A stretch of DNA of 64,000 nt from an uncultured Pseudomonadota bacterium (GTDB taxonomy: Bacteria > Pseudomonadota > Alphaproteobacteria > Rs-D84), in assembly GCA_902762295.1 (NCBI GenBank), contig CACWNX010000001.1, forward strand, positions 465,671 through 529,670. The letters are read 5' to 3'. A program made the position numbers and the translations under genes. Numbering within the stretch: the stretch's first letter is position 1; each line of letters starts with the position of its first letter. The notes below the pieces were generated by a model. That model saw only the letters and a program-made list of their open reading frames with translations, was not told where the DNA came from and did not search any database. This document shows positions 7,374 through 49,386 of the stretch, one piece after another.

Positions 7374-8582
7374 ATGAACGAAATGTTAAATGGTTTTGTT
7401 GAAAATGTCACCCAGTGTTGGGGATGTGCGATATTTGACAATTTGTTCAATGTTGTATCGTCTGCTGGTGCGGTTGTGTATACCAAGATTGCAGATATCT
7501 GCTTTGTAATATTTGCTGCATTATTTGTATTCTATGTAGTATGGGCGGTCTTTAAACATTTGAATCCTAAAAAACCAGACACATCCGATAAATTTTATAC
7601 AAAAAGTGTTATTCGCGTTGTTATAAATTCACTTGTTGTTTTAACTTTGTTGGGAATTGGTGTTGGCTTTCCGCGTTTTATAACACGTGTGACATTTGAA
7701 CCGGTTGCGGATATCACACTGGTGTATACCCAGTCTGTTTTACACACAACATCCGAATTTGTAAACCAGCATGTGCGTAATGCAACACCGGTAAAAACAA
7801 AAGAAGACGGTTTTTATCGTCCTGAATTGCGTGATACAATTATTATGTTGATGAAGACAACAATTACTCAGTTTCAATCATATATGAAACTGGGGATTGC
7901 AATCATAGATAAATCATTCACATGGAATGAAATGCCGACACTGGGCGCAATATTCCGGCATATCATAATGTTTGCGATTGGTCTTTATATACTCTATTAC
8001 TTTTTTAAATTATTCATACGATTCTGTTTTTATTTTGTTGATGTTATTGTTCATATGGCGCTGTTTGCGTTTCTGTTTCCGATTGCGCTGATGATGATGG
8101 CATTTCGTGGTGGAGATATGCCAGAATGGATGTCGTCGCTTGGGCGGGGGTTGGGTACCGACCAGATAAAAAAATTATTGGCATCTATTGTGTCATTAGG
8201 TGCCGCAGTAATTACATATCTGGTAATAATTGTTATTGTTGCACGATTCTTTTCGGACAGTGGTGTATCGGATTCAGAACTGATGAATGCGATTACATCA
8301 GGGGCGGTTTTTGAATCGGATTTATCGGGAAATAATATGGAAACACTGACACTGGTTGGTATGATAGTTTTACTTTATGTATTAAACTATATTACCGGAC
8401 AGATTCCACAGGTCAAAAAAATGATACTTGGTGCATTTGGGGCGTCGGAAGAAAATAAATTAAGCGAACAAATGGCGAATGATGCCGAAAAACTGGTTAA
8501 GTTGGTTACAGACAGTGTAAAATCAGTCGGTGAAAAAATAATAAATCCAGATAAAAAATCTGACACGGAAAATAAAAAATAA
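7374..8582 (+). CDS. Polytopic membrane protein, TrbL/VirB6-like, paralog 3
   Basis: 402 aa. N-terminal CWGC..F..LF motif, at least 6 TM helices, charged C-tail. The start abuts the paralog-2 stop (TAAATG). Confidence 0.55.
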   Translation: MNEMLNGFVENVTQCWGCAIFDNLFNVVSSAGAVVYTKIADICFVIFAALFVFYVVWAVFKHLNPKKPDTSDKFYTKSVIRVVINSLVVLTLLGIGVGFPRFITRVTFEPVADITLVYTQSVLHTTSEFVNQHVRNATPVKTKEDGFYRPELRDTIIMLMKTTITQFQSYMKLGIAIIDKSFTWNEMPTLGAIFRHIIMFAIGLYILYYFFKLFIRFCFYFVDVIVHMALFAFLFPIALMMMAFRGGDMPEWMSSLGRGLGTDQIKKLLASIVSLGAAVITYLVIIVIVARFFSDSGVSDSELMNAITSGAVFESDLSGNNMETLTLVGMIVLLYVLNYITGQIPQVKKMILGAFGASEENKLSEQMANDAEKLVKLVTDSVKSVGEKIINPDKKSDTENKK

Positions 8583-10021
8583 TGAAGAAATTGTTATTGG
8601 GTTATCTTATTCGTTTTGTGTTTGGGGCGATTGCGCTGGGGGTTGGTATTTGGTACTTAAGTTCATCAATCGGTGGTGCGTCATTATCATATACAAACAT
8701 AGACAATTTTATGTCGACGATTGGTGCAGGCGATGGAAATGTTGCATCGGTAAATGGATGCTTTATGTGCGGATATGTAAATGATTTGTTCGCCGTGTTG
8801 GGGTCGGCGGCAGAATTGTTCTGGAATGCAATATTGGACAATCTTTGGATTTTGATGGTCGTTGGTTTTGGAATATTCTTGATGATTCACAGTATCAAAT
8901 ATATTTACAAGGCGATGATAGAAACAACCACACTGGATACCAAAGAAAAAAAGTTAACATTCGGACCGTGGTTTGATACCGTTTGGCGTGTTGGCGTGCG
9001 CGTGATGATTGTTGGTGCGTTGATTGGGGCTTTTGGTATGGGCGGCGTGTCATCGTTAAAGACTTTATCAAACATAACAATAACACCTGTTATGTATGTG
9101 GGAAGTGAACTTGCCATGGCGGCGACAGGCGTATCAAATTCTGCGCAATGCGTACCGTCAGAATTTGACCAAAATAATCCAATGGCATCGGTGTCAAATT
9201 CGTTTATGTGCGTGATTGGTAATATAAATACGGTCATGCTGGCCGGGGGCGCAGGTGGGTTCGCTTTGATGAACTATGCATGGATGGGACTTGGTGGTGG
9301 TATTATGACATGGATTGCCGGACTTTTGATTGTAATAATGTTCGTTGTTATGGGGTTTGATTTATTCTTTCAGATTCTGTCCGTCATATTCAAATTGGTG
9401 TTTCTGGTTATATTCTTGCCGTTGATTGTTGCGGCAACTGCATTTGAAAAAACCTGGAAAATGGCATCTGGGGTATTAAAAAAATCAATTGATATGTTGG
9501 TCGAATCGGCGGTAAAGGTTATCGCAATTTCATTAAAGGTCGTAATTATATATGCAATAATATCGTTCGCCGGCAACGAAATTTTCCCAGGCAGTGGTAT
9601 GTTTCCACCATTATTAGATTCAAATTTGGTGACCACAAATGTGCAAACAAATGCGGTACATGATGCGTTTGCAATATGTGAAAATCATGCGATGGTTAAT
9701 GGCGCGTTGGATAAAGATTTATTCCGTAATTGTTTTACGGTTGAACGTGCGCGCATTGAATCTGTGTATCCGCATGCATTTGATTTTTTGCATGATGGCT
9801 TTGGATTTTTACTATTAATGATTGGCATATTCTGTCTATACTTCTATATATTGGGACCGCGCATAGACAAATTATTGGCATCGGTACCATCGTTTGAACC
9901 ATTTGCTAAATCAAATGATGCGGGCGGTGTTGATAATTTTGGTGGTGACCTGAAAAAATTAGTAAAAATGACATGGAAAAAACCGCAAGAATTTGCCGAT
10001 AAGATTATAAAAGAAAAATGA
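8582..10021 (+). CDS. Polytopic membrane protein, TrbL/VirB6-like, paralog 4
   Basis: 479 aa. GCFMCGY..LF motif; loop Cys pair CVPSEF..SFMC; multiple TM helices. The start overlaps the paralog-3 stop (TAATG). Confidence 0.55.
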   Translation: MKKLLLGYLIRFVFGAIALGVGIWYLSSSIGGASLSYTNIDNFMSTIGAGDGNVASVNGCFMCGYVNDLFAVLGSAAELFWNAILDNLWILMVVGFGIFLMIHSIKYIYKAMIETTTLDTKEKKLTFGPWFDTVWRVGVRVMIVGALIGAFGMGGVSSLKTLSNITITPVMYVGSELAMAATGVSNSAQCVPSEFDQNNPMASVSNSFMCVIGNINTVMLAGGAGGFALMNYAWMGLGGGIMTWIAGLLIVIMFVVMGFDLFFQILSVIFKLVFLVIFLPLIVAATAFEKTWKMASGVLKKSIDMLVESAVKVIAISLKVVIIYAIISFAGNEIFPGSGMFPPLLDSNLVTTNVQTNAVHDAFAICENHAMVNGALDKDLFRNCFTVERARIESVYPHAFDFLHDGFGFLLLMIGIFCLYFYILGPRIDKLLASVPSFEPFAKSNDAGGVDNFGGDLKKLVKMTWKKPQEFADKIIKEK

Positions 10022-11310
10022 AAAAAATTATAAAGAAATTTTTATCGTTTGTTTCAATGGCGATTTGTGCCGTGTCGTTCTGTATGCCGGTTTTCGCTGT
10101 ACAGACGAATTTGGTGACCGGTGATATTGGTGATTTTGGCAAATGGACAACCGAACACAACCAAGAAAAATTAGTCACCGATATTCAAAATGATATGACT
10201 AATTTTGAATCGGGATTTGAACGCGAATATGTTGAAACCGGTGTGCCACTGACCGCAAAGTTGGGAATCGTGTTTGTGCGTGCATTATCGTATGTTGCGG
10301 GTGTCTTGGATAATTCATTGGTGCGATTTGTAAATATATTTCTGATTGTGGCATTCATTTTTTGGATAATGTTTGAATCATATAAACTGATTACCGACGA
10401 CAAAACCAAGGCGATGCCAACGGTTGAAAATATGTTCCGTCGTGGTTTAATACTGGTGATATGGTTGATTTTGTTGGGTGGTGGATTACAAGAATTTTTT
10501 GGTATGATTATGGGACCGATTGTTCGATTCGGTTCATACATATCAAACATTATTTTAGATTCTGTGACCGAAACGCTGGGGTTTACATTATCGGATAACT
10601 GTGCCGCAATTCATGCGTACGCGAAATCCAATATGACCGGAACAACCGCAATGGATGCATCAACGGCGGCAAGCATAATGTGTATACCGGCGCGTTTGGC
10701 GGGTTTTTACTACGGGGCAATAAAGTTTGGATGGGATTTGTTCACACATGGATTTGGGACCAGTACATTTAGTGTTGTATTTGGATTGGTTTTGACATGT
10801 CTGTTTATATTTACCGCATATAAGTTTGCGTTTATCATGTTTGGTGTGATTGCAGATTTGTTCTTGGTTATCATAATGTTACCATTTACGGCGATTGCAG
10901 AAACCGTAAATAAAACATCGTATACCGGAATTGCCGGGAATATATACAACGGATTTTTGGAATTGTTTAAATCATCTAATTTATCATCTCAGATAAAGAA
11001 ATTTGTTGATGCCACGATTTATTTTATTTCATTTTCAATTATAATCGCAATTGGTGGCGCATTGCTTGGAACTGCGATTTCGTTAAACGGTGCCGCACAT
11101 ACCGTCACAATTATAAATGGGGATGTTGTAACACTTTTACTTACCGGCGCGTTGGTCGCATACATTGCATCACATGCCGAAGAATTTGCAAAATCAATTG
11201 GTGGTGGCATAGACTATGCATTGGGCAGTGATTTACAAAAAGATTTAAAAACTCTTTATAATGATACTAAAAAGAAAGCCACAGAATTTATCAAGGCATT
11301 AAAGAAATAA
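10018..11310 (+). CDS. Polytopic membrane protein, TrbL/VirB6-like, paralog 5
   Basis: 430 aa. Signal/TM N-terminus, loop with Cys pair (DNCAAIH..IMCIPARL), at least 5 TM helices, Lys-rich tail. ATGA overlap with paralog 4. Confidence 0.55.
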   Translation: MKKIIKKFLSFVSMAICAVSFCMPVFAVQTNLVTGDIGDFGKWTTEHNQEKLVTDIQNDMTNFESGFEREYVETGVPLTAKLGIVFVRALSYVAGVLDNSLVRFVNIFLIVAFIFWIMFESYKLITDDKTKAMPTVENMFRRGLILVIWLILLGGGLQEFFGMIMGPIVRFGSYISNIILDSVTETLGFTLSDNCAAIHAYAKSNMTGTTAMDASTAASIMCIPARLAGFYYGAIKFGWDLFTHGFGTSTFSVVFGLVLTCLFIFTAYKFAFIMFGVIADLFLVIIMLPFTAIAETVNKTSYTGIAGNIYNGFLELFKSSNLSSQIKKFVDATIYFISFSIIIAIGGALLGTAISLNGAAHTVTIINGDVVTLLLTGALVAYIASHAEEFAKSIGGGIDYALGSDLQKDLKTLYNDTKKKATEFIKALKK

Positions 11311-18591: not shown

Positions 18592-19308
18592 TTATCTGCT
18601 TCTACACTCGAAGCCACTGCCGGGTGTGTCACAATATATATTGTTACTTGTTTTGCCTGAACAGCATGCTGATGCACTTGATACCAGTGTACCGTCGGCT
18701 TTGCATACGTTGCATTTACAAACGTCTTTTACACATGCCGCAACGGTTCCGGTTCCACATGCCGGACAATCTGTGGCAACGGTCGCAGTCGTGCAACTGT
18801 ATAATTTATGTGCGATGCCCGCATTAGTCGTCACTTGATACAGTGTGCATTCCTGGTTAGCACAGGTTAACGACGGAACACCAATGGATTCCAATGTCTG
18901 ACCGTTCAACTGGTTATTTATATTTATTATTTGATTGTTCACACTGGTTACTTCATTATATATATTGTTTATATCCGATACCACATCACCGGCGGTCATC
19001 AAATCGCCTTCGTGACCGTTCGCAAGTTGGTACTCGCCATTTTCATCCCATTCACCACTGGTATCATAATCAAAAATACCGCGTTCATCGAATTGTGTCT
19101 GACCATTACTTGTTCCGTTATAGGTGACAACATTACCGGATGTCTTGGCGGTAATCTTATCCTGCTTCAATGCATCTTGGGCATCTACATAGGATTTAGA
19201 TGTGACTGTGTTTTCACCGGTTGCAAATGCATTGTTCCCCAGAATTGCGGCAAAAATACCCGCAAATATTAGCGATTTGTTTGTCGTTTTCCTCTCTTTT
19301 ATTTTCAT
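18592..19308 (-). CDS. Secreted Cys-rich hypothetical protein (238 aa)
   Basis: Signal peptide ..IFAGIFAAILGNNAFA; the C-terminal 90 aa carry about 16 Cys (..CPACGTGTVAACVKDVCKCNVC..). Confidence 0.55.
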   Translation of the reverse strand: MKIKERKTTNKSLIFAGIFAAILGNNAFATGENTVTSKSYVDAQDALKQDKITAKTSGNVVTYNGTSNGQTQFDERGIFDYDTSGEWDENGEYQLANGHEGDLMTAGDVVSDINNIYNEVTSVNNQIININNQLNGQTLESIGVPSLTCANQECTLYQVTTNAGIAHKLYSCTTATVATDCPACGTGTVAACVKDVCKCNVCKADGTLVSSASACCSGKTSNNIYCDTPGSGFECRSR

Positions 19309-41826: not shown

Positions 41827-42417
41827 ATGAAAAAATCATCTGTTTTAGGCGCGCTTGCGGGTGTGATGTTTATTGGAAATGCGGTTGCGGCCGATATAAC
41901 AATTTACTATTCACCGACATGTCCGCATTGTCATCATGCGTTGGAATTTATTTCTAACAATTTGATATATGAATATGAAAACTTGAATGTGACCAAGGTT
42001 AATGTGATGGAATCGGCAAATCGTGATGATTTTATGGCCGCATTAAAAAAGTGTGAATATGAATCTGGTGGTGTTCCGGTTTTGGTTATTGGCGACAAAT
42101 GCTTCCAGGGTTATGGCGATGCCATGCAGGGCGATGTCCGTGCCGCGATAGAGGTTGACTTGGATGATGCGGCAAAATCGGCGGCGGCGGAGAATAAATT
42201 GGCAATGGAAAAAAATGCAGATGAATTTCGCAATAACCATTCTGAACGCGCATCGGCAATTGTTGATCGCGAAACCGCAAAAGTTGCAGATGAAGATGCG
42301 CAAAAAAAAACTAAAAAAAATGCTAGCAAAACATCAGGTGGTAATTGGGTATTATATTTAATACTGATTATGTTGCTTGGTGGACTGGGGTTTGTGTTAA
42401 CGCGTAAAACAAAATAA
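41827..42417 (+). CDS. Exported glutaredoxin/thioredoxin-fold protein (CPHC active site) with C-terminal membrane anchor
   Basis: AAAGGAGAAAAA RBS. Signal peptide MKKSSVLGALAGVMFIGNAVAA. ITIYYSPTCPHCHH..GVPVLVIGDKCFQGYG (Grx-like). Charged linker, then TM NWVLYLILIMLLGGLGFVL. Confidence 0.6.
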   Translation: MKKSSVLGALAGVMFIGNAVAADITIYYSPTCPHCHHALEFISNNLIYEYENLNVTKVNVMESANRDDFMAALKKCEYESGGVPVLVIGDKCFQGYGDAMQGDVRAAIEVDLDDAAKSAAAENKLAMEKNADEFRNNHSERASAIVDRETAKVADEDAQKKTKKNASKTSGGNWVLYLILIMLLGGLGFVLTRKTK

Positions 42418-42420
42418 TGG

Positions 42421-43191
42421 ATGGAAATCATGTTTGACTTGACATGGATGGATTATATCTATATCGGCATATTACTGCTGTCCACAATATGGGCAACGGT
42501 TCGTGGCGGAATTTATGAAACGGTCGCGACATTATCATGGGTTGTTGCGGCGATTTCTGCACGATTTGCATCACCGTGGTTGGATAAATTATTACAGTCC
42601 TGGTTCGGCCTTGCCGAATCAACGGTTGGAACATTGGTGGCATCATATTTCATCGTGTTCTTTGTGATATTGCTGGTTGTGGGTATATTTAACCAGAAAC
42701 TGCGTGATCGAATTCAGGACAGTGTGATGAATGTCACCGACCGCACATTGGGGGTTATATTTGGTATCGTTCGTGGTGTGGTTGTTATGGGTATCGCATA
42801 TTGGATTGCGTTGTGGTATTTTTCCGACTATCCGCGTATGCCACATTGGATTGCCGATGCGCGCACGCGTCCGATTATGCAGTTGACCGCCGTTAAATTA
42901 GATCAATGGTTTATCCCGGGACCGGAAAACAGATTATTGAAACGTGATGTTGATGGTACGCACGAGGCAAAAAAGATATTTGATAACCTGATAAATCCGC
43001 GGGTGGTTGACGGCGAAAAAACGAAATCCGAAAATTCTGATGCGAAAAAACCGGAATCGAAACCAAACGAAGAAACCGGATATAAAAATTCAGAACGGTC
43101 TGCGTTGGAAAATCAACTGTTGCAGATTGAAACAGTTGCCAACGCGGTTGAACGACACGAACAAAACCGTGCAAAGCAAAATAAAGAATAA
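42421..43191 (+). CDS. cvpA: CvpA-family membrane protein
   Basis: ..DYIYIGILLLSTIWATVRGGIYE.. and ..DRTLGVIFGIVRGVVVMG.. match the colicin V production protein family. Charged C-terminal extension. Confidence 0.7.
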   Translation: MEIMFDLTWMDYIYIGILLLSTIWATVRGGIYETVATLSWVVAAISARFASPWLDKLLQSWFGLAESTVGTLVASYFIVFFVILLVVGIFNQKLRDRIQDSVMNVTDRTLGVIFGIVRGVVVMGIAYWIALWYFSDYPRMPHWIADARTRPIMQLTAVKLDQWFIPGPENRLLKRDVDGTHEAKKIFDNLINPRVVDGEKTKSENSDAKKPESKPNEETGYKNSERSALENQLLQIETVANAVERHEQNRAKQNKE

Positions 43192-43221
43192 AAAACGGAA
43201 TCAAATGATTTCGTTTTTTTA
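43192..43221 (+). terminator. Rho-independent terminator after cvpA
   Basis: AACGGAATC-aaat-GATTTCGTTttttttt. Confidence 0.6.
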
Positions 43222-43344
43222 ATGGTGTTTTTATTATTGTTTTGATTTTTATCCAATTTTAGTGTAACATACTATTGACAGGGCGATTGCTTTGTTGGGT
43301 GTCAGAACCCATTTAATGTATCGTGTCCGCGGGGACAAAAAATA

Positions 43345-43455
43345 CCTCCAACCAAACGTGGTTGGAGGGCGGTGAATATGTAGAATAAGCCCACTATTTT
43401 TCCGGGCATAATAGTTCTGAACCTCCAACCACTTGCTTTGTCTGGTGGTTTTTTG
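43345..43455 (+). promoter_or_regulatory. Structured leader upstream of the 43501 gene: perfect 10-bp CCUCCAACCA/UGGUUGGAGG hairpin, a second CCUCCAACCAC copy, then a terminator-like hairpin
   Basis: Hairpin 43345-43368 (CCTCCAACCA-aacg-TGGTTGGAGG). Second copy CCTCCAACCAC at 43422-43432, overlapping the stem AACCAC-(11 nt)-GGTGGTTtttttg at 43427-43455. Mutually exclusive pairings are possible. Confidence 0.4.
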
Positions 43456-43500
43456 TTCGTGTCTAATCAAACATTCGTGCACATAAAGAAAGGATAAGGT

Positions 43501-44469
43501 ATGAAAAAATTTATAGTTGTGTGTATATTCGGCTTAATAACCGTCCGGTCGTTCGGCCAAGTAGATGCTGATAGCGACAATATTGTTAACAACGCAACAG
43601 AATTGTTTAATGCCACAAAAATAGTTTGTTCGGGATTATCAGATGAAATTTCAAAAGTTTCAAATGTATCAAAAATAAACACCGCGGTAACCGGAGTTGG
43701 AACTGTTGCAGCCGGTGGTGCTTTGGCGGTTGGAATGGCAAAATCAAGTGAGGAAAGGGAAATAGAAGCATTGATAGACAAAATTTGTGCCAATGGTGGA
43801 TGCAGCGCAGAAAGTGTTAATGCGATGAGCCTGGAACAATTTTATACAAATGTCATTTCCCCAATGGCAGAAATTGCGGAATTACAGAACAAATTAGACC
43901 ACTCTAAAAAATTGGGTAATTGGCGCACTGGTTTAATGGCCGGAACAATCGGCACAAATTTGGCATCTGCAATAATATCGGGCGTAAACGCAAATCAATC
44001 TGATTTGATTCAGCATATAGAGGCGTGCAATAAAATGATAAAATCTTTGTCAGATATGCCGGCCAAATTGACATCTGCGGGTGTAAGTCCGTTGGATAAT
44101 CCAATAGCGAAAAAAATCAATAATGTAAAGACCTGGTGTAACCAGATAAACGTCAGTGATGCACAAAAAATAGAAAAGCGTATGAAAGGTGTAATGGGCA
44201 CATCAATCGCAGGCGTTGTGGTTGGTGGTATTGGCACAGCGGCCAGTGCGTCATCAAATTCCAATAAATATATGAATGCGGAACAAAGAATCGCCTTAAC
44301 AGAATCTGAAAAACAAAGTGTAAATAATTTGAATACGACGGCCAACATAATGTCGGGGGTTAATGTTGGTACAGGTTTGGTAGAGACGGGGTTAAATATT
44401 TCACTAATAACTTTAACAAAAAAAATGATACGCCAAGCCGAAATGTGTGAAGAGGCTTTGCAACAGTAG
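43501..44469 (+). CDS. Secreted hypothetical protein (322 aa)
   Basis: AAAGGATAAGG RBS. Signal peptide MKKFIVVCIFGLITVRSFGQ; Gly/Ala/Ser/Thr-rich; no TM. Confidence 0.5.
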   Translation: MKKFIVVCIFGLITVRSFGQVDADSDNIVNNATELFNATKIVCSGLSDEISKVSNVSKINTAVTGVGTVAAGGALAVGMAKSSEEREIEALIDKICANGGCSAESVNAMSLEQFYTNVISPMAEIAELQNKLDHSKKLGNWRTGLMAGTIGTNLASAIISGVNANQSDLIQHIEACNKMIKSLSDMPAKLTSAGVSPLDNPIAKKINNVKTWCNQINVSDAQKIEKRMKGVMGTSIAGVVVGGIGTAASASSNSNKYMNAEQRIALTESEKQSVNNLNTTANIMSGVNVGTGLVETGLNISLITLTKKMIRQAEMCEEALQQ

Positions 44470-44479
44470 GAGAAAAAAT

Positions 44480-45187
44480 ATGAAGAATTTTTTAATAATT
44501 TTGTCCTGTTTGTTTTATGTTCAAAATGCGTATTGTGATAATCCACCATTTGATATGGAATCTATGAATGCAGATTACATTGCCGGCAAGATTGATTTGG
44601 CAACGGCAATAGCGCTGTGTAAGCAAATTGTCAACTATGCGAAAGTGACCGAAATTGAAGTGTTATTACCGTATACCTCAGCCGATGGGAAAGAAATGTG
44701 GCATTCTATAAATAAGGATGATTGCGAACCTTCACCTGATTGGGATTACGATAGAAATTTGAGCTGGGTTTGGAATATCGCCATGTATGCGGCCAGGATT
44801 GTGGTAGAAACTGGTGTAAAAGAACATTCACAATGTCATCAATCTTTTATGGAATCACAGGCACGAACAAGGTGCGGTAGATTTGAGATGTCAAACTGGA
44901 CAAAAATTGGTTATACCATTTCTGGGTTAAATAACATGAATATAGATTGTTCTAAGACAGATAATAGATGTGTTGTAACCAGGCCAGCAAGCGATAAAAA
45001 CGGCAAAAATGTATTTTATACCGCCTGTTGTTTGATACCTATTATCAATTGTGAGTCTATAACAAATGATTCCGAACAGATTTTTTCTGGTACAACAGGA
45101 GATATTAGTCTTAGATGGAACGGTTTTACGGATAAGGCATTGGTTTTGGATGATTTTGGTTATGATTGTAAGCCAAAAACCGAATAA
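44480..45187 (+). CDS. Secreted Cys-rich hypothetical protein (235 aa)
   Basis: TAGGAGAAAAA RBS. Signal peptide MKNFLIILSCLFYVQNAYC; about 14 Cys. Confidence 0.5.
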   Translation: MKNFLIILSCLFYVQNAYCDNPPFDMESMNADYIAGKIDLATAIALCKQIVNYAKVTEIEVLLPYTSADGKEMWHSINKDDCEPSPDWDYDRNLSWVWNIAMYAARIVVETGVKEHSQCHQSFMESQARTRCGRFEMSNWTKIGYTISGLNNMNIDCSKTDNRCVVTRPASDKNGKNVFYTACCLIPIINCESITNDSEQIFSGTTGDISLRWNGFTDKALVLDDFGYDCKPKTE

Positions 45188-45189
45188 TT

Positions 45190-46104
45190 ATGAAACGCAT
45201 AATGGTATCATTTTTGTTGCTTATGTCGTCACTTTCTTGGGCGAATGATGCGTGTACCAATCCCGAAGCATATACGATTGATAAGCGTTGCTATGTAACC
45301 GAAGAACAAAAGAAACAAAAACCATACAATGCGGTTGCCACACTGGTATTGAACGATGGGCGAACACACTGTTCTGGAACAGTTGTAAAACGACAAGGAT
45401 TAACAATAGATGATGTGGGATATTTTTTATATACCGCCAAACATTGTGTAGATTTAAACCATGATAATATCACCGATGATTTGTTAAGAATACGATTGCC
45501 CAGCAATCAGGAATTTAACGCAAAACTGGTAAAACAGGGCAATTTAGATTATCAAGACCCCGCAAGTCAAACAGGCGATTGGGCAAAGTATAGGTTGGTC
45601 ACAATTGAACAAAATTCTGCTGACGGTGTAAAAGATTCTTTGGGTGGTGCATATGTGAAAATAAATGATTCTTTTGCACGCGGTGCAAAAAATGTTCGTA
45701 TTATTGGTTATGGTAAACTAAAAATAATGAGTGACCAAGAAATACAAGATTTTAAAAATGAATATACAGATTTTATTGACAAAACAGGTACCAATGCTAA
45801 TGACACGCATACAGATGATGGTGGAATTTATGGAAACGGTGTAACGATGTTTGTTTTGAAGAACAATAACCGTTTTAACGATAATCTGTTAAAAGTTTCA
45901 AAATGTTATCAAGATGCAAACACCAAGTTCACAGGATGTCAAGGATGGGGTGGAAATTCCGGTGGTGGTGCGTTTGATGACAATGGAAATTTAATGTGGA
46001 TACCCACATTAGGGCATTATCAAATCGGCGGCAAAGATCATGCCAGTATAACAGGCGGTGAAAATTTTCTTCCGTTTGGCAGATTACCCAACGTAAAAAA
46101 ATGA
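45190..46104 (+). CDS. Secreted trypsin-like (S1 family) serine protease
   Basis: Signal peptide MKRIMVSFLLLMSSLSWA. Catalytic triad contexts TAKHCV (His), DWAKYRL (Asp) and GCQGWGGNSGGGAF (Ser, GDSGG-like). Confidence 0.65.
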   Translation: MKRIMVSFLLLMSSLSWANDACTNPEAYTIDKRCYVTEEQKKQKPYNAVATLVLNDGRTHCSGTVVKRQGLTIDDVGYFLYTAKHCVDLNHDNITDDLLRIRLPSNQEFNAKLVKQGNLDYQDPASQTGDWAKYRLVTIEQNSADGVKDSLGGAYVKINDSFARGAKNVRIIGYGKLKIMSDQEIQDFKNEYTDFIDKTGTNANDTHTDDGGIYGNGVTMFVLKNNNRFNDNLLKVSKCYQDANTKFTGCQGWGGNSGGGAFDDNGNLMWIPTLGHYQIGGKDHASITGGENFLPFGRLPNVKK

Positions 46105-46150
46105 TATACAACCAAGGATTGCCTATCTTATAATTTGCTAAATTTTTTAA

Positions 46151-46172
46151 GCCCACGCGTTGTTGCGTGGGC
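46151..46172. terminator. Perfect 8-bp hairpin between the protease gene and tRNA-Thr
   Basis: GCCCACGC-gttgtt-GCGTGGGC, 14 nt past the tRNA-Thr 3' end. No strong T-run on either strand. Confidence 0.3.
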
Positions 46173-46185
46173 TAACAAAATTTCC

Positions 46186-46261
46186 TGGTGCCAGTTGTCG
46201 GACTTGAACCAACGACCCTCTGATTACAAATCAGATGCTCTACCAGCTGAGCTAAACTGGC
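46186..46261 (-). tRNA. trnT: tRNA-Thr (anticodon TGT)
   Basis: Reverse complement GCCAGTTTAGCTCAGCTGGTAGAGCATCTGATTTGTAATCAGAGGGTCGTTGGTTCAAGTCCGACAACTGGCACCA: acceptor GCCAGTT/AACTGGC, anticodon loop TTTGTAA. Confidence 0.85.
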
Positions 46262-48378: not shown

Positions 48379-49386
48379 ATGAAAAAATTTTTAGGTATGG
48401 CAATTACATCTGCGATGGTTGCAACATCGTCTATGGCGGCGAATATGGAAAACCCATTGTTTATACCGCGCGCGGGACAGTTTGCATCTAAAACAGGTTT
48501 TGGGTTGATGTATAAAAAGGCGGATCACACCGATGCAATGAAGTTAAAGGGGCGCGAAGGCGCAACAGAATTCCCAGTATGGCGTTTTACCGAAGATTTT
48601 GGTTATGGTTTCACAGATCGGTTAAGTGCGTATGCGTCACTTGGATGGACACAAAACAACGATATTGAACGCAAGGGTATGCATCGTGGTCGTGTCGGAT
48701 TAAACTATCGTGTTGTTGAAACATGGGATAAATTTGTTTGGGATTTGTATGGCGAAGGATATTTGTCCGGTATCACACCTATGAAGGGTTCCTACGACAC
48801 AGATGGTTTTACATACAATAATTTTTCTAATGGTCGTTGGGGGGCAGTCCTTGGAACGCGTGTTGGTAAAACATGGAACAAGTTTACCGCATCGTTATTT
48901 GCAGAATATCTGCAAACATTCGGCAATCATAACAATAAAATCAAATTAAAGCGTTTTGATTTAACCGAAATGGGATATGGTATCCAAGATGCCAGTGCAT
49001 TGGGATTTCCGGATCAAATTTCTGTTAACCTGAAATCAACCAATGAAATTACTGTTGGAACAAATGCATTTTATCAGTTAGATGATTCTTGGTCGTTTGG
49101 TGCCGGTTTCAGATTTGTTGAACATTCAGATAATGGTGTAAAATCTATCTATACTGATGTTTCAGGTGCAAACCCTGCGGTTGTTAATGGTTTGTTAGCA
49201 CAAACAAAAGATATGGACGATGGTTGGGACGAATATATAGTTTCGGCGGTTGTTGCCAACCAAATTACCGACCGTTTCCAAATTGCGTTGTTCGGTGAAT
49301 ACACATTTGACCATTCGCACAAGAATAGCCAAAACGGAACCGATATAAAGGCCGAGGCGGGTGTTCGTTTGAATGTTGTTTTCTAA
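48379..49386 (+). CDS. Outer-membrane beta-barrel protein (porin-like)
   Basis: Signal peptide MKKFLGMAITSAMVATSSMAA; alternating amphipathic strands; C-terminal ..AGVRLNVVF with terminal Phe. Confidence 0.6.
   Translation: MKKFLGMAITSAMVATSSMAANMENPLFIPRAGQFASKTGFGLMYKKADHTDAMKLKGREGATEFPVWRFTEDFGYGFTDRLSAYASLGWTQNNDIERKGMHRGRVGLNYRVVETWDKFVWDLYGEGYLSGITPMKGSYDTDGFTYNNFSNGRWGAVLGTRVGKTWNKFTASLFAEYLQTFGNHNNKIKLKRFDLTEMGYGIQDASALGFPDQISVNLKSTNEITVGTNAFYQLDDSWSFGAGFRFVEHSDNGVKSIYTDVSGANPAVVNGLLAQTKDMDDGWDEYIVSAVVANQITDRFQIALFGEYTFDHSHKNSQNGTDIKAEAGVRLNVVF

Follow-up and report, generated by a model that had tools for sequence, protein, structure and literature searches.

A leader RNA and three genes for exported proteins as a candidate operon of the reduced-genome order Rs-D84

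In the window, that is, the whole stretch of 64,000 nucleotides analyzed here, three tightly packed genes (A, B, and C) lie on the plus strand between the intrinsic terminator of cvpA and a minus-strand tRNA-Thr(TGT) (Table 1). The coordinates of both the open reading frames and the tRNA agree with this arrangement, which had already been read from the sequence in an earlier note. The host is Candidatus Enterousia, a member of the order Rs-D84 with genomes under 1 Mb. The product of cvpA, which ends at 43191, matches Pfam Colicin_V (1e-24), and the stem of its terminator is perfect in three related loci (L088, L004, and L005). A, B, and C are the only open reading frames between cvpA and the tRNA, with none between C and the tRNA. 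They are separated by gaps of 10 nt (A-B) and 2 nt (B-C), and AGGA-type ribosome-binding sites precede A and B; an alternative GTG start of B at 44447 was no better supported. The hairpin that follows C, which has no classical T-run on either side and is broken by an insertion in L094, is the likely termination point of the operon, of the tRNA transcript, or of both.

Table 1. Positions of the genes, RNA features, and recombination tracts described in the text.
Feature	Position	Strand	Remarks
cvpA intrinsic terminator	43195..43221	+	hairpin CGGAATC/GATTTCG followed by a T-run; bounds the block on the left
Structured leader RNA of the A-B-C operon	43262..43457	+	~195 nt; multi-helix junction, then a terminator-like hairpin
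Gene A	43501-44469	+	322 aa
Gene B	44480-45187	+	235 aa
Gene C	45190-46104	+	304 aa
Hairpin AGCCCACGC/GCGTGGGCT	46150..46173	.	between C and tRNA-Thr
tRNA-Thr(TGT)	46186-46261	-	right boundary; 3′ end toward the A-B-C block
Recombination tract 1	43250..44600	.	leader and A, with ~120 nt at the 5′ end of B
Recombination tract 2	44564..46162	.	bulk of B, complete C, and the spacer

As had been proposed, each of the three products carries a predicted Sec signal peptide. By a rule-based check, every N terminus has K/R residues and a hydrophobic core, whose mean hydropathy on the Kyte-Doolittle scale is 2.5-3.3 across the three proteins, together with a -3/-1 site, with predicted cleavage between SFG and Q in A, AYC and D in B, and SWA and N in C.

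Gene A encodes a Sec-type exported protein rich in glycine, alanine, serine, and threonine (34.5% in total), as first described, which AlphaFold2 predicts to be all-helical. Its conserved core consists of four glycine-zipper-like, semi-hydrophobic segments (residues ~59-80, 136-167, 229-255, and 277-307) connected by variable loops; by segment, these are the most conserved regions of the protein. Cys43, Cys176, Cys213, and Cys316 are invariant throughout the family. Clustered at 90% identity, the homologues of A number more than 1,000. Every one of them comes from a gut or rumen metagenome, and where a name is given, it is that of an “Alphaproteobacteria bacterium” MAG. We found no match for A in Pfam, NCBIfam, PDB, PHROG, or PADLOC, and profiles of the orthologues (A1) or of the whole family (A3) retrieved nothing credible from PDB and Pfam, with no PDB match below E 0.003. 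Likewise, none of the Pfam glycine-zipper or known pore-forming-toxin families was matched by hmmscan of 63 family members. The AlphaFold2 model of A, built with 55 homologues in the input, was poor (pLDDT 49.6), and the structure-based search suggested earlier for the two non-protease proteins, when run with Foldseek, found no significant match for A or B; this low-confidence model of A returned generic long-helix matches (best E 0.24), and neither the model nor these matches were weighed as evidence. The analysis defines an abundant protein family that has so far been without annotation.

We also considered a four-pass inner-membrane topology of A. The invariant cysteines fit it; the segments are marginally hydrophobic (mean Kyte-Doolittle hydropathy of 1.0-1.6), and the density of Lys/Arg, in our own charge count from the sequence, is about equal on both sides. 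The topology was therefore left open, and the membrane association of A is to be taken as putative. A comparison of residues 35-80 with residues 205-251 by hhalign (E 3e-4, probability 39%) is suggestive of an internal duplication. Codon usage was uninformative as to a high expression of A: few genes of the window have a lower CAI than A (0.59), and the bias is weak overall.

Gene C encodes a putative Sec-exported serine endopeptidase of the S1 (chymotrypsin-fold) type, S1B-like in character. The motifs pointed out before, TAKHC (residue 82), DWAKYRL (130), and GNSGGG (255), are all present, and the catalytic codons were assigned to His85 (45442-45444), Asp130 (45577-45579), and Ser257 (45958-45960). 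Across 47 homologues, H85 (within TAKHC) and D130 (within GDWA) are invariant, while S257 (within GNSGG) is conserved in at least 90%. The predicted catalytic triad is thus intact, in the order His, Asp, Ser. C scored 26.2 bits against Pfam Trypsin_2, for which the gathering cut-off is 27.6, and most of its homologues have precomputed assignments to PF13365 and/or PF00089. The single sequence of C found no match in PDB; the family profile matched solved S1 proteases, including exfoliative toxins, glutamyl endopeptidase, and trypsins, at E 9e-7. C is further marked by an N-terminal segment, CTNP...RCYVT...PYNAV, that is conserved, and by an insert (GYGxLKIMSDxEI...) of ~40-60 aa that separates the two halves of the protease.

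The product of gene B is a fast-evolving Sec-type exported protein that contains 12 cysteines, in agreement with its initial description as Cys-rich, and has the conserved motifs CSKTDNRCVV, ACC, and DFGYDC. Its N-terminal half is predicted to be helical and its C-terminal half to form a beta-sheet. Apart from the lack of a Foldseek match, other structural matches of B were weak, and neither B nor C was matched in PHROGs or PADLOC. We examined whether an N-terminal docking domain, suggested by a visual resemblance, might be common to B and the partners encoded next to the paralogues of A; hhalign aligned the signal peptides only (E 0.39 after their removal), and this candidate was rejected. 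In a by-eye comparison, the N-terminal domain of these partners was not common to C either.

The leader RNA upstream of A combines a multi-helix junction with a terminator-like hairpin, in which AACCAC (43427-43432) pairs with GTGGTT (43445-43450) ahead of a T-run, ~45 nt before the start codon of A. Duplicated boxes, two copies of CCTCCAACC and two of TTGCTTTGT, permit mutually exclusive pairings. The leader is 86-100% identical across all of the syntenic loci, even where these carry a different allele of A. Its structure, which is based on about three independent haplotypes, includes one helix with compensatory double changes in 5/10 pairs, and the leader of the window itself has three mismatches in this covarying helix; the single-sequence fold has a z of -2.35. 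When compared with 4,227 Rfam families, only tRNAs reached the gathering score, and the best match of the leader (E 0.12-0.5) was driven by a terminator hairpin. The leader resembles attenuator and riboswitch leaders in its conserved length of ~195 nt, its junction, its terminator-like hairpin, and its alternative pairings; it differs from them in belonging to no Rfam family and in being found in one genus-level clade only. It is a candidate new cis-regulatory RNA, which would regulate the operon by transcription attenuation.

Cassettes led by A occur across Rs-D84. A always comes first and is followed by a variable same-strand set of exported proteins, which comprises B-like Cys-rich proteins, S1 proteases (from zero to at least four copies), and other exported families. 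Among 43 cases counted, the gene after the orthologous A was C in 22, B in 16, and a member of the D family in 2. An iterated HMM of the D family merged with C, which may be profile drift; we draw no conclusion on homology between the two. Proteases are found in tandem, with four copies in L041 and at least three in L092, and small membrane-anchored proteins follow the proteases in L001, L025, L038, and L092. Each paralogue of A has an exported partner gene of its own. These partners have a common N-terminal domain and variable C-termini; one of them carries a Glucosaminidase domain, and one contains 32 cysteines. The A-led cassette is ancestral to the whole Rs-D84 lineage, with A as its founding, always-first gene of no known family. 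We consider it somewhat more probable than its negation (~0.55) that the leader together with A, B, and C constitutes one operon, an exported-protein cassette specific to the order Rs-D84, this value applying to the explanation as a whole.

The composition of the cassettes also bears on how its members relate to each other. Some contain A and no protease (L006, L007, L016, L018, and L090), which argues that A is not a protease-specific factor. Another reading takes B as a dedicated inhibitor or chaperone of the protease C, with A functionally unrelated. Against it, B-like genes are found without any protease in L006, L007, L016, and L090, and proteases without B in L001, L002, and L041. The weak structural matches of B and the negative Foldseek search also speak against this reading, which we regard as quite improbable.

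Most often, the gene immediately upstream of the cassette is an NlpD-like M23 gene; at least 12 loci have only 12-30 nt between it and the start of A. This frequent adjacency could alternatively reflect a housekeeping envelope role, in which A would act in the envelope or in cell division together with the NlpD-like LysM/M23 peptidase, and the exported genes would be mere neighbors at a permissive site. The presence of A in every sampled lineage and the strong conservation of its helical segments fit such a role. On the other hand, the cassette is also found next to cvpA, FtsK, gyrA-merR, or a secretin, and in these contexts, away from nlpD, the downstream exoprotein partners are retained. That every paralogue of A has its own exported partner, and that alleles of A sweep between species, which is atypical of a housekeeping gene, further make the housekeeping reading unlikely. 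In one clade (L018, L022, and L023), the cassette is preceded by a TcpQ-secretin pair, and in the genus of the window, it is placed between cvpA and tRNA-Thr.

The locus is a mosaic of two recombination tracts (Table 1). Tract 1 is 94-100% identical to the corresponding sequence of other species (L004 and L005), as compared to 65-86% for its flanks. Relative to these species, the dS of A is 0.054 and 0.134, versus 0.87-1.5 for mdh, grx, cvpA, B, C, and U32. Tract 2 is 91-100% identical to a further species (L094 and L095), with the flanks and A at 72-78%, and there the dS of B and C is 0.099 and 0.027, respectively, versus 1.3-2.0 for mdh, grx, cvpA, and A. The mosaic is present in independent assemblies, namely, L094 and L095 as well as L005, L085, and L086. 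The sequence comparisons thus indicate that two modules, the leader with A and B with C, have been swapped between species by homologous recombination. Such between-species sweeps may reflect selection on surface or secreted functions, and the locus provides a concrete case of gene-specific introgression in a reduced genome.

The earlier note had seen in the block the layout of a small secreted-effector or virulence module placed at a tRNA, as in an island. In favor of this island reading, A-B-C abuts the 3′ end of tRNA-Thr, its GC content is slightly low (36-39% versus ~42%), C is polymorphic in presence, and relatives carry other cargo at the same end: an R-M system behind an 18-nt fragment of the tRNA-Thr 3′ end in L094, and a TetR and thioesterase pair in L004 and L005. 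The tRNA-Thr 3′ end is thus an insertion hotspot for other cargo in relatives. However, A-B-C lies outside the insertion point in all three of these loci, and in L094, it is on the cvpA side of the att-like tRNA fragment. No recombinase or integrase domain was found in A, B, or C, the sole genes between cvpA and the tRNA; the 25-nt end of the tRNA has no second copy in the window, also when up to three mismatches are allowed, and hence no direct repeat on the cvpA side, and no relevant repeat family was found. The GC (0.36-0.39) and GC3 (0.29-0.35) of the block are low, yet equalled by several other genes of the window, and searches of phage, plasmid, and IMG/VR collections returned no relatives. 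Moreover, the cassette occurs order-wide in tRNA-free contexts.

The presence/absence comparison proposed in the same note showed a polymorphism of C. In the syntenic loci compared (L004, L005, L085-L089, and L094-L096), C is missing from L096, while A and B are present in all 11 syntenic loci, and no empty site was found. Conserved synteny of the three genes with cvpA in distant relatives had been named as the mark of core genes, and on this point the answer was divided; we found synteny with cvpA only inside the genus-level clade, while the module itself is conserved far beyond it. A-B-C shares with tRNA-associated genomic islands its position at a tRNA 3′ end and the variable cargo found there in relatives. 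It differs from them in that neither an integrase nor a flanking repeat nor a foreign origin was found for it, and in its exchange by homologous recombination among congeners. The island reading is largely refuted, and we hold a horizontally acquired effector or virulence islet integrated at the tRNA-Thr 3′ end to be very improbable.

Rs-D84 genomes are smaller than 1 Mb and lack amino-acid biosynthesis and recognizable, standard uptake transporters, and a dependence on partners has been proposed (PMC12306168). The lineage, Rs-D84/Enterousia, is widespread in animal and human guts, has no cultured member, and its feeding mode is an open question (PMC12306168). C, with B, may act outside the cytoplasm on environmental or partner-cell proteins, and such extracytoplasmic proteolysis would suit an organism in which amino-acid biosynthesis is missing; B and C might also stay periplasmic. 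A may serve at the cell envelope as a membrane-associated partner of the exoenzymes encoded with it, anchoring, releasing, or delivering them. Because a hydrolase cassette is kept in a tiny genome, with its protease copies expanded and exchanged despite saturated synonymous divergence, it is a strong candidate for machinery that interacts with the surroundings or with a partner. Taken further, the A family could be the conserved membrane-inserting part of an undescribed Sec-dependent system for the release or delivery of polymorphic exoenzymes (S1 proteases, peptidoglycan hydrolases, and Cys-rich proteins) in the partner-dependent, reduced-genome Rs-D84, in some lineages with a TcpQ-secretin outer-membrane channel of its own, with cassettes traded between species and a new leader-RNA class controlling it in Enterousia. 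This is a tentative proposal, and we think it rather unlikely that all of its parts hold jointly.

The same properties of A could be those of an effector, that is, of an alpha-helical, glycine-zipper toxin that inserts into membranes and forms pores, or of a bacteriocin-like protein, directed against a partner or competitor and activated or assisted by the proteases. The predicted all-helical structure, in which the helices are long and the segments rich in Gly/Ala/Thr are marginally hydrophobic, is compatible with this, as are the swapping of alleles between species and the supposed partner dependence of the host; the low model confidence in the conserved segments would be expected if folding needed an oligomer or a membrane. 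However, an immunity gene is not evident, no pore-forming toxin was matched significantly (MakA and XaxB at E >1 only, with a poor model), the Pfam glycine-zipper families were not matched, and the part of the cassette that varies is not A. We therefore consider a toxin distinctly unlikely.

A secreted CPHC thioredoxin-fold protein is encoded two genes upstream in the window, a proximity restricted to this clade. Together with the high cysteine content of the partners (12 in B and 32 in the paralogue partner mentioned above), and with the four invariant cysteines of A, all located in segments that would be periplasmic in a protein spanning the membrane with its four helices, it might suggest a role of A in the maturation of its Cys-rich partners, such as that of a DsbB-like membrane thiol-disulfide oxidoreductase. 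A has neither a CxxC motif nor similarity to DsbB or VKOR, however, and a membrane core that binds a quinone would hardly be as polar as its segments are; a respiratory chain is missing in the lineage, and the CPHC protein is close by in this clade only. We judge such a role of A to be extremely unlikely and retain the association of A with exported enzymes as the preferred reading.

Among known systems, A can be compared with glycine-zipper membrane-active proteins, which include the Pfam Gly-zipper and Rick_17kDa families, VacA, and Caulobacter CdzC/D. It shares with them repeated G/A/S/T helical segments, marginal hydrophobicity, and a conserved core, and differs in being much larger, with four segments, long loops, a Sec signal, and invariant cysteines, and in matching no Pfam model. 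No relevant paper that combines glycine-zipper proteins and secreted serine proteases in Alphaproteobacteria came up in a full-text literature search. The organization of the cassette recalls the Neisseria maf loci, which encode the MafA lipoprotein, the polymorphic toxin MafB, and MafI. Both open with a conserved gene for a Sec-exported protein of ~320 aa, both continue with variable proteins that are also Sec-exported, and the loci recombine; the partners of the A paralogues, with their conserved N-terminal domain and highly variable C-termini, extend this likeness. We detected no sequence similarity to maf, however; A, unlike MafA, is not a lipoprotein, and the N-terminal domain of the partners is absent from B and, as judged by eye, from C. 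No toxin domain or immunity gene was identified in the window, and of the hallmarks of polymorphic toxin systems (Maf-, CDI-, or Rhs-like), neither a trafficking-domain fusion in B or C nor an immunity ORF after C was found.

Last, C can be compared with the Staphylococcus peptidases of MEROPS S1B (V8/GluV8, SplA-F, and the exfoliative toxins). The His-Asp-Ser order, the GNSGG-type motif, and the Sec-type secretion signal are common to both, and the ...PYNAV... segment of C aligns with the S1B N terminus. In contrast to these peptidases, C, whose similarity is remote (profile E ~1e-6), comes from a Gram-negative alphaproteobacterial host. Its mature N terminus has an additional CTNP...RC motif of the disulfide type, and the insert of ~40-60 aa also sets it apart. 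The tandem multiplication of C genes (L041 and L092) resembles the spl operon.

The whole interval between cvpA and tRNA-Thr is occupied by three plus-strand genes, termed A, B, and C, with spacings of 10 nt (A-B) and 2 nt (B-C) and AGGA-type ribosome-binding sites at A and B. A hairpin with a T-run comes after the end of CvpA (Pfam Colicin_V, 1e-24) at 43191. The 3' end of the tRNA points toward C, and a U32/TrhP-like gene lies on the far side of the tRNA. A rule-based check found the traits of Sec signal peptides (charge, hydrophobic core, and -3/-1 pattern) at the N termini of all three products. Together, the ORFs, tRNA calls, N-terminus check, and motifs confirmed what the earlier note had described, namely three same-strand Sec-type genes with S1 protease motifs between cvpA and tRNA-Thr. 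Genes lying 5' of A include, besides cvpA, a minus-strand one for an Fe/Mn superoxide dismutase and one for an exported protein that has a thioredoxin fold and the motif CPHC. The thioredoxin-fold protein may act as a periplasmic disulfide oxidase for Cys-rich exoproteins. An antisense ORF of 179 codons (44010-44549, minus strand) within the 3' half of A is also open in distant orthologous loci; most likely, it is a by-product of the G/A/S/T-rich codons and conservation of A and not a gene.

Features of the locus in the window and in the compared loci from public assemblies (L numbers); D, third exported-protein family of A-led cassettes; S, small protein after the protease
Feature	Locus	Position	Strand	Details
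Exported thioredoxin-fold protein	window	41827-42417	+	DsbA-type active-site motif CPHC; C-terminal hydrophobic anchor; two genes upstream of A
Structured leader	window	43262-43457	+	~195 nt inside the 310-nt gap 5' of A
A	window	43501-44469	+	322-aa ORF
B	window	44480-45187	+	235-aa ORF
C	window	45190-46104	+	304-aa ORF
tRNA-Thr(tgt)	window	46186-46261	minus	ARAGORN and Rfam agree
Covarying leader helix	L088, L004, L096			5' arm AATGTATCG; 3' arm CGATACATT
Covarying leader helix	L094			5' arm TATGCTCGG; 3' arm CCGAGCATA
Covarying leader helix	L005			5' arm TATGTTCGG; 3' arm CCGAGCATA
Cassette example	L001			A-C-small protein
Cassette example	L041			A-C-C-C-C
Cassette example	L092			A-B-D-D-C-S-C-S-C
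Paralogue cassette	L043	880-3540		
Paralogue cassette	L072	3368-4198		
Paralogue cassette	L090	1221-5024		
Small post-protease protein	L001	9897-10250		
Small post-protease proteins	L092	11009-11371, 12363-12725		
Small post-protease protein	L025	2550-2924		
Small post-protease protein	L038	8014-8502		

The same note had placed this module, as an island, at the tRNA. We found no integrase within the A-B-C block and no second copy of the tRNA-Thr 3' end in the window with up to three mismatches allowed. The GC and GC3 of the three genes are low, yet equalled by other genes in the window, and searches of phage, plasmid, and IMG/VR collections gave no relatives of A. Furthermore, the gene order fabH-HU-mdh-GNAT-sodB-grx-cvpA-A-B-C-tRNA-Thr-U32 is kept in a genus-level clade whose housekeeping genes are only ~80% identical. 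On these grounds, an island at the tRNA is an unlikely explanation of A-B-C. Insertions of another kind do occur in relatives. In four loci (L004, L005, L085, and L086), C is separated from the tRNA by genes for a TetR regulator and an acyl-ACP-thioesterase-like protein (8665-10022 in L004). In L094, an 18-nt fragment (8113-8130) is identical to the tRNA 3' end (window 46186-46203); beyond it lie a C5 DNA methylase and an NgoFVII-like restriction endonuclease (8356-10098), and A-B-C sit on its cvpA side. The tRNA-Thr 3' end is an insertion hotspot in relatives, with A-B-C outside it, and the tRNA linkage of the three genes is incidental.

The locus is instead a mosaic of homologous recombination, as revealed by dS computed for the window against three other Enterousia species. 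Against L004/L005, dS was 0.054/0.134 for A, 0.94/0.87 for B, and 1.26/1.10 for C, with mdh, grx, cvpA, and U32 at 0.96-1.5. Against L094, the values were 0.099 for B, 0.027 for C, 2.0 for A (78% amino acid identity), and 1.3-1.5 for mdh, grx, and cvpA, and this arrangement was repeated in the independent L095. Against L096, A is itself mosaic (dS 0.405; mdh, grx, cvpA, and U32 1.1-1.5), B shares 43% amino acid identity, C is absent, and the tRNA directly follows B. At the DNA level, window 43250-44600, which reaches from the leader through A to ~120 nt into B, is 94-100% identical to L004 and L005, and the near-identical tract shared with L094 covers 44564-46162. Where the tracts end, the sequences share the conserved leader, the beginning of B, and the region of the tRNA. 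Alleles of A in syntenic genomes form three classes, 69-82% identical between classes. Because the long-range conservation of A is ordinary (61% identity where GyrA has 85%), its near-identity reflects recent homologous exchange and not constraint. Elsewhere in the window, a porin-like outer-membrane protein gene (48379-49386, plus strand) is only 87% identical to the contig of the same species (L088), in which all neighboring genes are 98-100% identical; it appears to be another surface-protein locus of unusual divergence or exchange.

Conservation of the leader exceeds that of every flanking gene, even in L094 with its different A allele. In the RNAalifold prediction, several helices meet at a junction; downstream of it, ~45 nt 5' of the start codon, come a terminator-like hairpin and a T-run. 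One helix carries compensatory double changes at 5 of its 10 pairs, a covariation score reached in 3 of 500 shuffles and drawn from about three independent haplotypes. The copy in the window is a chimera that combines arms of two types, leaving three mismatches in this helix. The leader boxes are duplicated, with CCTCCAACC present twice against one GGTTGGAGG, and TTGCTTTGT present twice; they permit mutually exclusive, attenuator-like pairings. The leader matches no Rfam family, and its motif is confined to the syntenic loci compared here. With about three independent haplotypes, it is a good candidate RNA element, putatively a new attenuator or riboswitch, which would act by transcription attenuation. 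An upstream ORF of 19 codons (ATG at 43317) runs across the first hairpin and is open but differently read in L004 and L005.

In 96 loci surveyed from public assemblies, the genes that come after orthologous A, all in its orientation, vary: they include C (one to at least four tandem copies), B, and D (~320-370 aa). Each protease is followed, in some lineages, by a 117-120-aa protein with a membrane anchor. Among 43 cases counted, the gene directly after A was C in 22, B in 16, and D in 2. The downstream gene set differs among relatives, and in this respect the idea of a secreted module of variable content was right. The genes around distant A cassettes are wholly unlike those of the window. 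Most commonly, A starts 12-30 nt past a LysM/M23 NlpD-like gene, a context in which a rival reading would give A a housekeeping envelope role tied to NlpD; in other loci, A follows ftsK, or gyrA-merR with a paralogous A. In L018 (2562-5281), L022 (3352-5918), and L023 (785-3440), a TcpQ-like gene and a secretin lie directly 5' of A on the same strand, in L022 also 5' of the proteases. No pilus or type II assembly genes were found near this pair in the three loci; the two genes may encode a minimal channel for export across the outer membrane, linked to the cassette.

Paralogues of A (30-35% identity) across L043-L084 and L090 each have an exported protein next to them. These partners share an N-terminal domain (..Y..LMD...G.VSI..L..VC.AGG......C..F), which is not detectable in B, followed by C-terminal regions of 277-1,267 aa, one partner carrying a peptidoglycan Glucosaminidase domain (PF01832). 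Such an organization is that of polymorphic effectors. Since A comes first in varied loci with unrelated surroundings and has paralogue partners, the cassette is old in the lineage and not recently acquired. A, linked to exported hydrolases across the lineage, is constant in the cassette, and what varies is the set of exported enzymes. In the window, an exported Cys-rich protein of 238 aa and no obvious family (18592-19308, minus strand) adjoins the gyrA-merR region; other Rs-D84 genomes have a paralogous A cassette at its position.

The A family comprises more than 1,000 homologous clusters, the 120th-best match still being 60% identical, and an exhaustive search gave 283 clusters of 50%-identity representatives. 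All named members are hypothetical proteins from Alphaproteobacteria MAGs, and neither the single sequence nor two profiles found a relative in Pfam, NCBIfam, PHROG, PADLOC, or PDB. Six cysteines are invariant among orthologues and four (C43, C176, C213, and C316) family-wide; a role of A as a disulfide-maturation factor is one alternative to consider here. Four segments rich in G/A/S/T (approximately residues 59-80, 136-167, 229-255, and 277-307) form the conserved core; their majority-residue fraction is 0.85-0.91, as compared to 0.60-0.71 in the loops, and their hydrophobicity is only marginal (mean Kyte-Doolittle 1.0-1.6). The variable part is loop 1, where distant members insert 200-350 charged residues. 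AlphaFold2 predicted an all-helical A with low confidence (pLDDT 49.6), lowest precisely in the conserved segments, so that a fold search with this model carries no meaning. A may span the membrane, insert conditionally, or form a soluble bundle; a pore-forming effector is a further alternative. B evolves fast, with only seven clusters found by sequence search, although B-like genes directly 3' of A in distant loci retain 28-31% identity and the same Cys pattern (CSKTDNRCVV, ACC, and DFGYDC). Its AlphaFold2 model is usable (pLDDT 76): the N-terminal half is helical, and the C-terminal half forms a beta-sheet. As a rival reading, B could be an inhibitor of C.

C carries TAKHC at residue 82, DWAKYRL at 130, and GNSGGG at 255, and the triad is intact: in an alignment of 47 homologues, His85 and Asp130 were invariant and Ser257 at least 90% conserved. 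Pfam Trypsin_2 scored just below its cut-off (26.2 versus 27.6 bits), and most of the 130 homologues have precomputed PF13365/PF00089 assignments. A PDB search with the single sequence gave no match; the family profile matched solved S1 proteases, best the S. aureus exfoliative toxins (9e-7), and also trypsins and a glutamyl endopeptidase. In this profile search, the conserved N-terminal ...PYNAV... aligned with the S1B N terminus. Peculiar to this family are CTNP...RCYVT at the mature N terminus and the insert GYGxLKIMSDxEI... that separates the halves of the protein. We conclude from these sequence features that C is probably a catalytically competent, remote S1B-like endopeptidase. In several lineages, individual protease copies have after them a small protein (~117-160 aa) whose N terminus carries a membrane anchor or a lipoprotein-like signal; these proteins may inhibit the protease or be immunity-like partners. 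None is present in the window.

All exact or near-exact copies of the A, B, and C proteins come from metagenome assemblies of gut and rumen, the named ones as "Alphaproteobacteria bacterium," and the closest species-representative genome is Candidatus Enterousia sp. Enterousia belongs to the uncultured order Rs-D84, and its genomes of 0.75-1.0 Mb lack the TCA cycle, respiration, standard uptake transporters, and amino acid, nucleotide, and fatty acid biosynthesis; a partner-dependent lifestyle was proposed (PMC12306168). In our proposal, A would work at the envelope or membrane as a partner of the enzymes encoded with it, anchoring, releasing, or delivering them, and the cassette would serve nutrient scavenging or partner-cell interaction, functions that we only infer. 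So far, the cassette headed by A is undescribed, as are its leader RNA and its exchange between species, and C adds a new, remote member to a known protease class.
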